The position numbers and the translations under genes are program-made. 34,379 nucleotides of DNA from a virus (taxonomy: Duplodnaviria > Heunggongvirae > Uroviricota > Caudoviricetes), in IMG/VR virus record IMGVR_UViG_2778261181_000004; one strand, given 5' to 3'. Below the pieces are notes generated by a model, which saw only the letters and a list, made by a program, of their open reading frames with translations, searched no databases and was not told the origin of the DNA. Below, piece after piece: positions 7,650 through 8,040 of this stretch. Each line of letters begins with the position of its first letter. Within the stretch, counting starts at the first letter, position 1.

Positions 7650-8040
7650 TCCTCATCATATCGACCCTGCAAGGTCGGTTGGTTTCTCCACAAAACAGAG
7701 AAGAACACCTGCGGTGGCAGCCGCCCGGATGGATTGGGTTATGAGCCCGTCGTCCGGTGATGCTCTTCTCTGTTTTGTAAAAAGAGCGGTACCAGCCGGA
7801 AGCAAGTGTACAAACTGGTACCGCCAAAGCAGTGGCTGTTGTGGTGCCGGGTGCCTCCCGGTGCCTGGCGAAGGTTGCACACCAGGCGGGTGGGTATCCA
7901 CAGAAGGTCGACTGTCAGTCTCAACCTTAACCCGCGTGCGCTGAGCCGCATTCACCACAACGCTAAGGATTCTCTCTGGTTGAAAATACTTAGCTGTTAT
8001 GTGCCTGCTTTTAGCCACATCAGGCGAGGTGGTAGGTACG
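7650..8040 (-). ncRNA. Candidate structured non-coding element (unknown family) within the leftward early operon
   Basis: GC-rich segment with no convincing ORF; perfect 15-bp inverted repeat ACAAAACAGAGAAGA (7690-7704) / TCTTCTCTGTTTTGT (7764-7778), plus GGTACCAG...CTGGTACC and CCGGG...CCCGG hairpins; strand assumed from flanking genes. Confidence 0.25.

Follow-up and report, generated by a model that had tools for sequence, protein, structure and literature searches.

What does a phage keep in a stretch of roughly 390 base pairs (bp) that separates two genes and contains no credible open reading frame (ORF)? The question is raised by a genome of the Caudoviricetes (IMG/VR record IMGVR_UViG_2778261181_000004), which was analysed as a single stretch of 34,379 nucleotides (nt), hereafter referred to as the window. 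The initial annotation of this DNA had singled out positions 7650-8040 as a GC-rich segment with nested inverted repeats, a candidate structured RNA or DNA element that it could not assign to any known family. We show here that the segment is non-coding, that it lies inside the early-left (pL) operon of a lambdoid phage, and that the core of its RNA, which we call the rosette, belongs to a family with a pseudoknotted five-helix fold under strong selection. As judged by comparison of sequence and structure, this core can be placed, as a divergent member without a promoter of its own, in the STnc100/EcOnc27/PasD family of prophage small RNAs. While the STnc100 family itself is known, what is new is a divergent variant that stays below the family's detection threshold and occupies a new genomic setting.

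A non-coding segment within the early-left operon

The segment is located on the minus strand between a gene for an HTH_17 protein and a yfdP-like gene (Table 1), and the Escherichia virus mEp460_4F5 is 100 % identical to the window over positions 7642-8044. The yfdP-like gene is followed on its 3' side by yfdQ (DUF2303) and then by a yfdR-like gene for an HD-domain protein. In the other direction, some 460 nt separate the segment from a candidate pL promoter, which is flanked by the cI-like repressor gene and the HTH_17 gene, and homologous phages have a strong TTGACA-16/17-CATAAT promoter at the equivalent spot. Since the segment lies inside the pL operon, the sense of its RNA is the minus strand. 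No N-like gene is evident from Pfam annotation, the first gene of the pL operon being that of the HTH_17 protein, and the gene 5' of the element varies or is missing in related phages.

The block recurs in the phages SfV, SfIV and SfII at 91-100 % identity and in Salmonella phage ST64B at 74 %. Of 5426 complete E. coli genomes, 2781 contain it as well, without annotation or, occasionally, labelled “hypothetical protein”. In E. coli K-12, CPS-53 has no copy upstream of yfdP and shares only a 19-nt region around the ribosome-binding site; the Q-to-lysis intervals of DLP12 and Qin contain no rosette copy.

The change in composition noticed at first is real: the GC content amounts to 0.54-0.60 across 7600-7999, against 0.39-0.49 in the flanks. 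The inverted repeats are equally real. The perfect 15-bp repeat (7690-7704/7764-7778) grows to 25 nt per arm at 84 % complementarity, the GCGGTACCAG/CTGGTACCGC stem is a perfect 10-bp repeat (7786-7795/7815-7824) and the CCGGGTGCCTCCCGG stem is located at 7847-7861. The minus strand folds with -171.5 kcal/mol (z = -7.3), a value reached by none of 100 shuffles, and the plus strand with z = -5.6.

ORFs of 70-120 amino acids do occur in multiple frames on both strands, as had been noted, and none has a Pfam match. That one of them is a real gene is hardly credible. One candidate, the longest sense-strand ORF (7656-8018, minus strand, 120 amino acids, GTG start), runs on the operon strand, and some deposited records carry a “hypothetical protein” here. 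However, comparison with 25 distinct relatives (mostly 91-97 % identical, one 86 %) found the frame broken in 21 of them by 1-nt and 8-nt indels, so that translation would end at codon 6, 9 or 95. The three codon positions contribute evenly to the variable columns (21/26/25), with no sign of codon periodicity, and the translation is of low complexity and rich in proline and arginine. The protein-coding reading was rejected on account of the frameshifts, the lack of codon-position bias and the missing Pfam match.

A pseudoknotted five-helix fold

From 5' to 3', the rosette consists of the closing helix P1, the junction AAU, P2, P3, which encloses a variable insert, P4, a single A, P5 and the 3' strand of P1. 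P2 comprises 4-5 bp with a one-nucleotide bulge and a loop of the form CUNAGCG. In addition, 5-9 nt directly following the 5' strand of P3 pair with the loop of P4 to form a pseudoknot.

Relatives were collected from one genome per species with a pattern derived from two shared motifs, which gave at least 120 loci across the Enterobacterales. The invariance of GGTGAAT and of the P5 sequence in this pattern-seeded, genome-wide set is there by construction, because the seed pattern fixes both; the later model search recovered variants of P1 and P5. That model, a covariance model termed R1, was built here from 45 diverse family members with the window included in the seed. A search with R1 recovered 145 copies from 100 sources, and another 33 sources contributed 37. 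Exactly one rosette copy is found in the window, with 85.1 bits on the minus strand (the window being part of the seed), whereas on the plus strand the best match that overlaps the region (7750-7871) reaches 10.8 bits. No second rosette, for instance on the pR side, was detected in the window, the next-best R1 match reaching 11.8 bits (E = 0.09, 6278-6385). The yfdQ-yfdR intergenic region at 6273-6388 (minus strand) contains a GC hairpin (GCCCCUGCGGGGGC), which is probably a mere hairpin or terminator.

The covariation of stems among relatives, a check proposed by the initial annotation, turned out to be strong. In a MAFFT alignment of 45 sequences, 85.9 % of the pair cells can pair, compared with 39-44 % when the partners are slid, and 20 of 31 pairs have changed on both sides. 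The model-fitted alignment of 140 distinct Enterobacterales homologues gives 90.8 % canonical pair cells versus about 42 % with slid partners, with compensatory changes in 28 of 30 pairs; its covariation score of 0.527 (0.165 in shuffles) was not reached by any of 500 shuffles. The two strands of P2 covary (CCCC/G.GGG, GCGG/C.CGC, CCCU/A.GGG, CCUUU/AAAGG and others) and P1 is fully replaceable, GGUG/CACC giving way to AACG/CGUU or UAUG/CAUA.

The pseudoknot also varies while remaining paired. It reads AAGGCUG/CAGCCUU in the Cronobacter phage phiES15 and UUUGAUC/GAUCAAA, AGGCUAC/GUAGCCU or one of many other combinations elsewhere, with 88 distinct helices among 101 non-redundant RNAs. The mean complementary run per sequence is 5.97 nt, against 4.45 +/- 0.11 nt when loops are permuted among these 101 sequences (z about 14; none of 500 permutations came close). 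Conservation is instead concentrated in the junction and the loops (GAAU, CUNAGCG, ACCGGGAGGCACCCGGC), the helices other than P5 being free to vary. The frequent G-U pairs in the minus-sense helices (e.g., GU in 51 and UG in 17 of 140 sequences) and the asymmetry of the R1 score support an RNA made from the minus strand. With no conserved reading frame and strong covariation of its stems, the segment is thus what it had been taken for, a non-coding structured sequence.

Modular layout of the segment

The nested repeats had been described as parts of a single element. The repeats are real; what they compose are separable modules of differing phylogenetic distribution. On the minus strand there are three of them: the rosette with its pseudoknot, an intrinsic-terminator hairpin (T) with a U-tract, and a long hairpin (LH) accompanied by a small one (SH). 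Among 80 IMG/VR loci with an identical YfdP, one group has all 390 nt and another only the 3' half (about 7850 to 7642). The 5' part is found without the 3' part upstream of kil in phiES15, and locus L010 keeps T and LH without a rosette. Homology among relatives begins at about position 8033 (query position 11-13 in most), and SfV and L010 have a diverged version of the CCAC...GUGG hairpin at this edge. Hairpin H0 directly precedes the rosette.

Table 1. Coordinates of the segment's features and of the adjoining genes and signals in the window
Feature	Position	Strand	Basis or remark
cI-like / LexA-like repressor gene	8592-9218	-	Peptidase_S24 + HTH_3 (Pfam)
Candidate pL promoter TTGCCA-17-TAGATT	8510-8538	-	Consensus scan, 9/12 matches; context only
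HTH_17 gene	8045-8419	-	124 amino acids; Pfam PF12728, E = 3.8e-9; stop codon adjoins the segment
Small hairpin CCAC...GUGG	8015-8032	-	Fold; 5' edge of the block conserved among relatives; weakly supported
Hairpin H0 (GCUAAGUAUUUUC...GAGAAUCCUUAGC)	7962-7994	-	Inverted repeat I4, 13 nt per arm, 85 % complementary; in minimum-free-energy fold
Rosette	7837-7962	-	125 nt; five-helix junction + pseudoknot; divergent STnc100-family domain (by comparison)
P1	7961-7953 with 7846-7838	-	Rosette closing helix
J1/2 (AAU)	7952-7950	-	Rosette junction
P2	7949-7934	-	Loop CUCAGCG
P3	7933-7930 with 7891-7888	-	Rosette helix
Pseudoknot AAGGUUG/CAACCUU	7928-7922 with 7877-7871	-	Covariation
P4	7887-7880 with 7870-7863	-	Rosette helix
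P5 (CCGGG AGGCA CCCGG)	7861-7847	-	Rosette helix
Linker, single-stranded	7826-7836	-	Unpaired in folds; between rosette and terminator
Terminator hairpin T + CUUUUU tail	7779-7825	-	Fold; perfect 10-bp repeat; STnc100 model alignment
Long hairpin LH	7690-7778	-	Fold; inverted repeat I1; 25-bp stem
Small hairpin SH	7660-7679	-	Folds; just 5' of yfdP ribosome-binding site
Ribosome-binding site GAGGAG (7654-7649) + yfdP-like start codon	7639-7654	-	Sequence; ORF list
yfdP-like gene	7279-7641 (ORF)	-	ATG at 7641-7639

Relationship to the STnc100 family

At gathering thresholds, no Rfam family is found anywhere in the window, in line with the earlier remark that the segment does not match rnpB, ssrA or 6S RNA. 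The segment could not be assigned to a known RNA family at first, yet in a permissive scan positions 7979-7777 (minus strand) align to the whole of the STnc100 model (RF02076, model positions 1-206) with 36.3 bits against a cut-off of 47, corresponding to E = 3e-6 in a 701-nt search and 1.5e-4 for the whole window. The other permissive matches (ftsZ-DE, MIR1094, hairpin ribozyme, STnc130 and SNORA44) were dismissed on score. Among relatives, L083 scores 47.8 bits, which is above the cut-off, and L004 41.9 bits. The cut-off is reached by only one of eight window-type loci tested, and by all listed copies of the CCC-type described below.

The core at 7962-7837 has the P1-closed multi-helix architecture of STnc100, the GAAU junction, the P2 loop CUNAGCG and the motif CACCGGGAGGCACCCGGCACCA, and a terminator hairpin (7825-7785) with CUUUUU follows within about 50 nt, its tail being shorter than is typical. 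What the window copy does not share is the status of a stand-alone gene, since it has no sigma-70 promoter of its own and does not lie in the late “moron” region.

Few bacterial “small RNAs” are annotated as often as STnc100, to which no function is assigned (PMC9029176). EcOnc27 (sRNA103) of enterohaemorrhagic E. coli (EHEC) overlaps STnc100 and is an Hfq-bound RNA encoded downstream of stx2B (PMC4104026, PMC12711010); it was crosslinked to Hfq and sits with related small RNAs at the “moron” site (PMC4104026). Variation within the STnc100 copies that lie beside Shiga-toxin genes has been linked to clinical outcome (PMC12711010). In enteropathogenic E. coli (EPEC), Northern blots revealed that the stability of PasD1 and PasD2 depends on Hfq (PMC8550237), and a preprint reports that PasD is related to STnc100 (bioRxiv 10.64898/2026.05.13.724894). 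The accessible portions of the literature mentioning STnc100 contain no apparent description of the pseudoknot, of arrays or of a subfamily in the pL operon.

Two subtypes in two genomic contexts

The 133 unique copies fall into a CCC-type, which matches the STnc100 model of Rfam (116 copies), and a GCG-type, to which the window belongs (17 copies). CCC-type copies follow Q, PR' and tR' and precede the holin gene. A sigma-70 promoter often ends a few nt before P1 (20 of 116 at a score of at least 9/12, versus a background of 1 %), the clear cases having TTGACC or TTGACT and spacers of 17-18 nt. Moreover, a perfect-stem terminator follows 24-49 nt past P1 in 46 % of the copies, versus a background of 12 %. 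GCG-type copies occur in early-left operons downstream of a cI-like gene, and none of the 17 has a promoter scoring at least 8/12. For the window RNA itself, no promoter was found by consensus scan, by promoter scoring, or by eye in 8044-7963. The genes downstream of this subtype are yfdP-yfdQ (Buttiauxella, ST64B), kil (phiES15) or other small genes.

The CCC-type forms arrays of up to six copies, some of them back-to-back with linkers of 8-28 nt. Arrays of three to six rosettes fill the interval between a Q-like gene and the holin-lysozyme-Rz genes at L158:4136-5928(-), L122:948-1990(-), L147:6399-7835(-), L154:2063-3602(+) and L121:6368-7003(-); other array copies each carry a promoter-like -10 element and a terminator. 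Alternation of rosettes with same-strand phage tRNA genes is seen at L157:4063-5073(+) as well as in L129, L092, L153, L166 and L113. Among 60 loci, tRNAs lie within a few hundred nt of a rosette in ten, the closest order being rosette, 5 nt, tRNA-Met. ARAGORN found only true tRNAs beside rosettes at these 60 loci and never called a rosette as tRNA, and the window has no Rfam match to tRNA or tmRNA. The same program made an odd call, “tRNA-??? (ctaa)”, between rosettes of L158 and L154. Several small-RNA families share the late-region site in L150, where matches to the Hfq-binding RNA isrI (2583-2679 and 3281-3377) are found among STnc100 copies downstream of a lambda-type Q gene.

A further variation on the theme is seen in Stx2c-type phages (L032:1184-1306, L039, L087), in which the same closing helix (GUUGUGGU(G)AAU...CACCACAAC) and flanks surround different interiors. 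The variant of L032 keeps P2-P4 and the pseudoknot (GUAUGG/CCAUAC), lacks P5 and scores only 23 bits with R1; L006:1180-1306 has yet another interior within the same closing helix and flanks. The impression is one of rosette variants that can be exchanged for one another and are linked to the immunity region. In such phages the approximately 600 nt from pL to yfdP, which by eye seem to be free of ORFs, contain structured RNA and the same terminator. About 270 nt between a strong pL (TTGACA-17-CATAAT) and the variant rosette (L032:900-1183, also L006 and L039) are GC-rich, ORF-free by eye, and may represent another structured leader element that is absent from the window.

Terminator, linker and the yfdP leader

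The stem of T comprises 13 bp (7825-7813 with 7797-7785) and is joined to a 15-nt loop and the tail CUUUUU (7784-7779); T folds with -21.2 kcal/mol (z = -4.2) and aligns with the terminator hairpin of the STnc100 model. At the same position, a hairpin is also present in relatives from Salmonella, Citrobacter and Klebsiella; its sequence is unrelated, and CUUUUU(UU)AC comes after it. This argues that termination itself is selected. The linkers between rosette and terminator measure 2-58 nt in relatives and are A/U-rich. Such variable A/U-rich linkers are as expected for modules that combine a seed with Hfq binding; no seed motif was conserved in them beyond what shuffles give.

The 3' remainder of the segment is a conserved 5' leader of yfdP. 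LH begins right after the U-tract, folds with -49.3 kcal/mol (z = -7.8), and its 25-bp stem is capped by a three-way tip with the conserved GGGCUCAUAACCC. It can be extended to 7781-7687, the U-tract then pairing with a downstream GGAG. The RNAalifold consensus of 15 diverse sequences contains 22 stem pairs, of which four have changed on both sides and several alternate between U-G, U-A and C-G. LH stays linked to yfdP even where the rosette is replaced. At the position of SH, relatives have hairpins of the same size and other sequence (GGCGGUGGCAGCCGCC and similar).

In a Salmonella/Citrobacter-type variant of the locus, the 71 nt within the LH arms are exactly inverted between otherwise near-identical loci (L273:711-900 versus L277:711-900, 71/71 as reverse complement), three loci having one orientation and two the other. 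It follows that the arms recombine as DNA inverted repeats or that the enclosed segment is an invertible switch. This inversion and the presence of perfect and near-perfect inverted repeats are what one would expect if the element acted at the level of DNA, be it as a cruciform, as a site of recombination or inversion, or as a site bound by a protein. For the segment as a whole we nevertheless consider this very improbable. The common G-U and U-G pairs of the minus-sense helices would be C-A mismatches on the complementary strand, the R1 score is strongly strand-asymmetric, neither a pseudoknot nor a five-way junction would make sense in DNA, and none of 69 E. coli-type loci shows the inversion. 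As far as the rosette is concerned, the DNA-level reading is already largely refuted, and of the two options left open by the initial annotation, a structured RNA of the minus strand is the one that stands.

Possible roles of the element

The explanation that we favour, to which we give about an even chance, is that the segment yields a structured small RNA by termination of pL transcripts and at the same time attenuates the expression of yfdP. Its core would be a unit of about 190 nt comprising the pseudoknotted rosette, the short linker and the intrinsic terminator. Upon loss of the repressor, RNA polymerase starting at pL would transcribe the HTH gene and then the rosette, and a substantial fraction of the transcripts would end at T. 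Termination would free an RNA whose 3' part (rosette, linker and T) could persist as a stable small RNA of the type derived from 3' untranslated regions (3'-UTRs). By analogy with the Hfq-bound relatives in EHEC and EPEC, it may act in trans, the rosette serving as a nuclease-resistant scaffold and the linker with the terminator as the Hfq and pairing module. T would also attenuate transcription into yfdP-yfdQ-yfdR and beyond. On transcripts that read through, LH would part the small RNA from the yfdP message, most plausibly as a double-strand-specific (RNase III-type) site of processing or stability.

A number of findings weigh against this explanation. As mentioned above, the window does not reach the 47-bit gathering score of STnc100. 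Its U-tail has just five consecutive U which, together with the 15-nt loop, make it weaker than the typical 7-8 U and poorer for Hfq, and its linker is short (11 nt) and not A/U-rich. Within the GCG-type, a terminator is present only in the E. coli phages and phiES15. Other window-type rosettes lack one, sometimes lying just 10-40 nt before a ribosome-binding site, which means that not every member of the subtype would give a discrete small RNA. Conservation in the family peaks in the loops and junction of the rosette rather than in any candidate seed, and back-to-back rosettes without a linker fit a simple base-pairing small RNA poorly. With the pseudoknotted fold, the divergent subfamily, the pL location and the tandem arrays taken together, the family bears less resemblance to an ordinary base-pairing regulator.

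One could imagine, tentatively, that the STnc100 unit represents a distinct class of compact, pseudoknotted, tRNA-sized RNA whose function resides in the fold; such an RNA may bind, decoy or modify a conserved machine of host or phage (for instance Rho, RNA polymerase, a tRNA-directed enzyme or an RNase) or be involved in catalysis. If this were true, lambdoid phages would deploy the rosette as arrays of up to six copies in the late leader between Q and the lysis genes, and the single promoter-less early-left copy could replace an N/nut or put system. Applied to the present element, the idea that an autonomous rosette binds, sequesters or mimics a conserved partner of the cell or the phage, or is catalytic, with linker, terminator and Hfq association as incidental packaging, strikes us as rather doubtful. 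It would account for the conservation of GAAU, CUNAGCG and ACCGGGAGGCACCCGGC amid freely varying helices, for a pseudoknot kept by covariation, for arrays of three to six rosettes that are in part only 8-28 nt apart, for the same-strand tRNA genes as close as 5 nt, and for the occurrence of the rosette with and without a terminator in two different operons. However, no partner is predictable from the sequence, no ribozyme, riboswitch or protein-binding RNA in Rfam 15 is similar, and the documented Hfq-dependent interactomes of relatives already supply a function.

The location of the window-type rosettes suggests a role in cis, which on balance we regard as unlikely. The rosette would act on the transcribing polymerase or recruit a factor to it, in the manner of the HK022 put RNA or of lambda nut/N, so that pL transcripts get past T, and past later terminators as well, as far as yfdPQR...xis-int. 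In that case the segment would be a region controlling antitermination or attenuation and not a small-RNA gene. Window-type rosettes are indeed found at the nutL/putL position, after a cI-like gene and pL, in sense orientation and promoter-less, in a phage with no evident N-like gene. The rosette lies 11 nt from a terminator of conserved position, which transcription has to pass before xis and int can be expressed, its invariant loops would suit recognition by a conserved host machine, and the seemingly gene-free leader of Stx2c-type phages, with its structured RNA and the same terminator, fits as well. On the other hand, typical family members terminate efficiently just past the rosette and accumulate as RNAs of about 200 nt (PMC8550237, PMC4104026). 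Arrays of as many as six copies are found in late operons that have Q already. In this phage the pR operon lacks a second copy, and L010 retains T and LH without any rosette. A rosette followed by a terminator, as in a transcriptional riboswitch or attenuator, is present; the linker is not conserved, and mutually exclusive pairing between rosette and T extends over at most 5 nt (CCGCC/GGCGG) by inspection, no systematic search having been made.

Other observations in the window and in related phages

Three further regions deserve mention. In the window, a gap of 630 nt without an ORF of at least 90 amino acids (16237-16866) follows a 214-amino-acid ORF (15592-16236). It contains only a weak match to STnc130 (30.1 bits versus a threshold of 55) and no rosette, and could be a late promoter or leader region. 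In ST64B, which also bears a window-type rosette, adjoining matches to isrK (64.3 bits) and C4 antisense RNA (79.7 bits) lie to the right of cro (L002:5732-5920), a pair that constitutes a P1/P7-type antisense immunity module. In SfV, an apparent small gene on the opposite strand, with a CAT start preceded by a sequence resembling a ribosome-binding site, is located between orf33 and the element (L003:3438-3600); the pL transcript would cross it antisense ahead of the rosette.

Comparison with known systems

The window RNA resembles STnc100 in its prophage-borne occurrence in Enterobacterales, in the helix order P1-P2-P3-P4-P5 followed by a terminator hairpin, in the J1/2 sequence GAAU, the P2 loop CUNAGCG and an identical 22-nt CACCGGGAGGCACCCGGCACCA, and in the pseudoknot architecture. 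It differs in P2 (GCGG/C.CGC instead of CCCC/G.GGG), in lying in the early-left operon near the immunity region instead of at the “moron” site between Q/PR' and the lysis genes, and in lacking its own promoter, with a shorter terminator tail and a second conserved structure, the long hairpin, directly after it. This divergent subfamily, missed by current Rfam thresholds, is present unannotated in about half of the complete E. coli genomes, and it occupies the leader of the early-left operon instead of the late region.

Small RNAs derived from 3'-UTRs and bound by Hfq, such as CpxQ, SroC and DapZ, are short, have simple hairpins and a conserved seed. Like these, the window RNA has no promoter of its own, shares its terminator with the upstream HTH_17 mRNA and has a structured body 5' of the terminator; unlike these, it conserves a large pseudoknotted domain and has no evident conserved seed. 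RNase III processing hairpins are found in phage early transcripts, as in the lambda N leader, sib and the R sites of T7. LH is comparable in that a near-perfect duplex of about 25 bp lies, within an early operon, downstream of one RNA and ahead of the next gene's ribosome-binding site. A conserved tip is dispensable for simple RNase III sites, whereas the apical three-way tip of LH is itself conserved (GGGCUCAUAACCC). GOLLD and ROOL are phage-associated RNAs of 500-800 nt with a complex conserved fold, which occur near tRNA genes in Firmicutes and other phyla. The rosette is likewise prophage-borne, often close to phage tRNA genes of the late region and complex in its conserved fold, but it measures only 110-135 nt, is enterobacterial and forms tandem arrays, and no Rfam similarity links it to them.

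With the put RNAs of HK022, finally, there is a possible functional analogy only: both are structured RNAs in the leader of an early operon without an N-like protein, upstream of terminators that transcription has to pass. A put RNA of about 70 nt folds into two stem-loops arranged as a V with a short triplex, occurs in both the pL and the pR operon and binds the zinc-binding domain of the beta' subunit (PMC9378689). This two-stem V bears no likeness to the rosette of 125 nt with its five-way junction and pseudoknot, which counts against the role in cis considered above, and the rosette is present in a single copy in this phage. Homology to the put RNAs was rejected on architecture. R1 had no match in HK022 positions 20000-32000, a region whose sparse annotation showed no nun, cI or putL, so that its coverage of put is unconfirmed. 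The pseudoknot of the rosette and read-through at T provide testable handles on early-left control in N-less lambdoid phages such as SfV, ST64B and mEp460.

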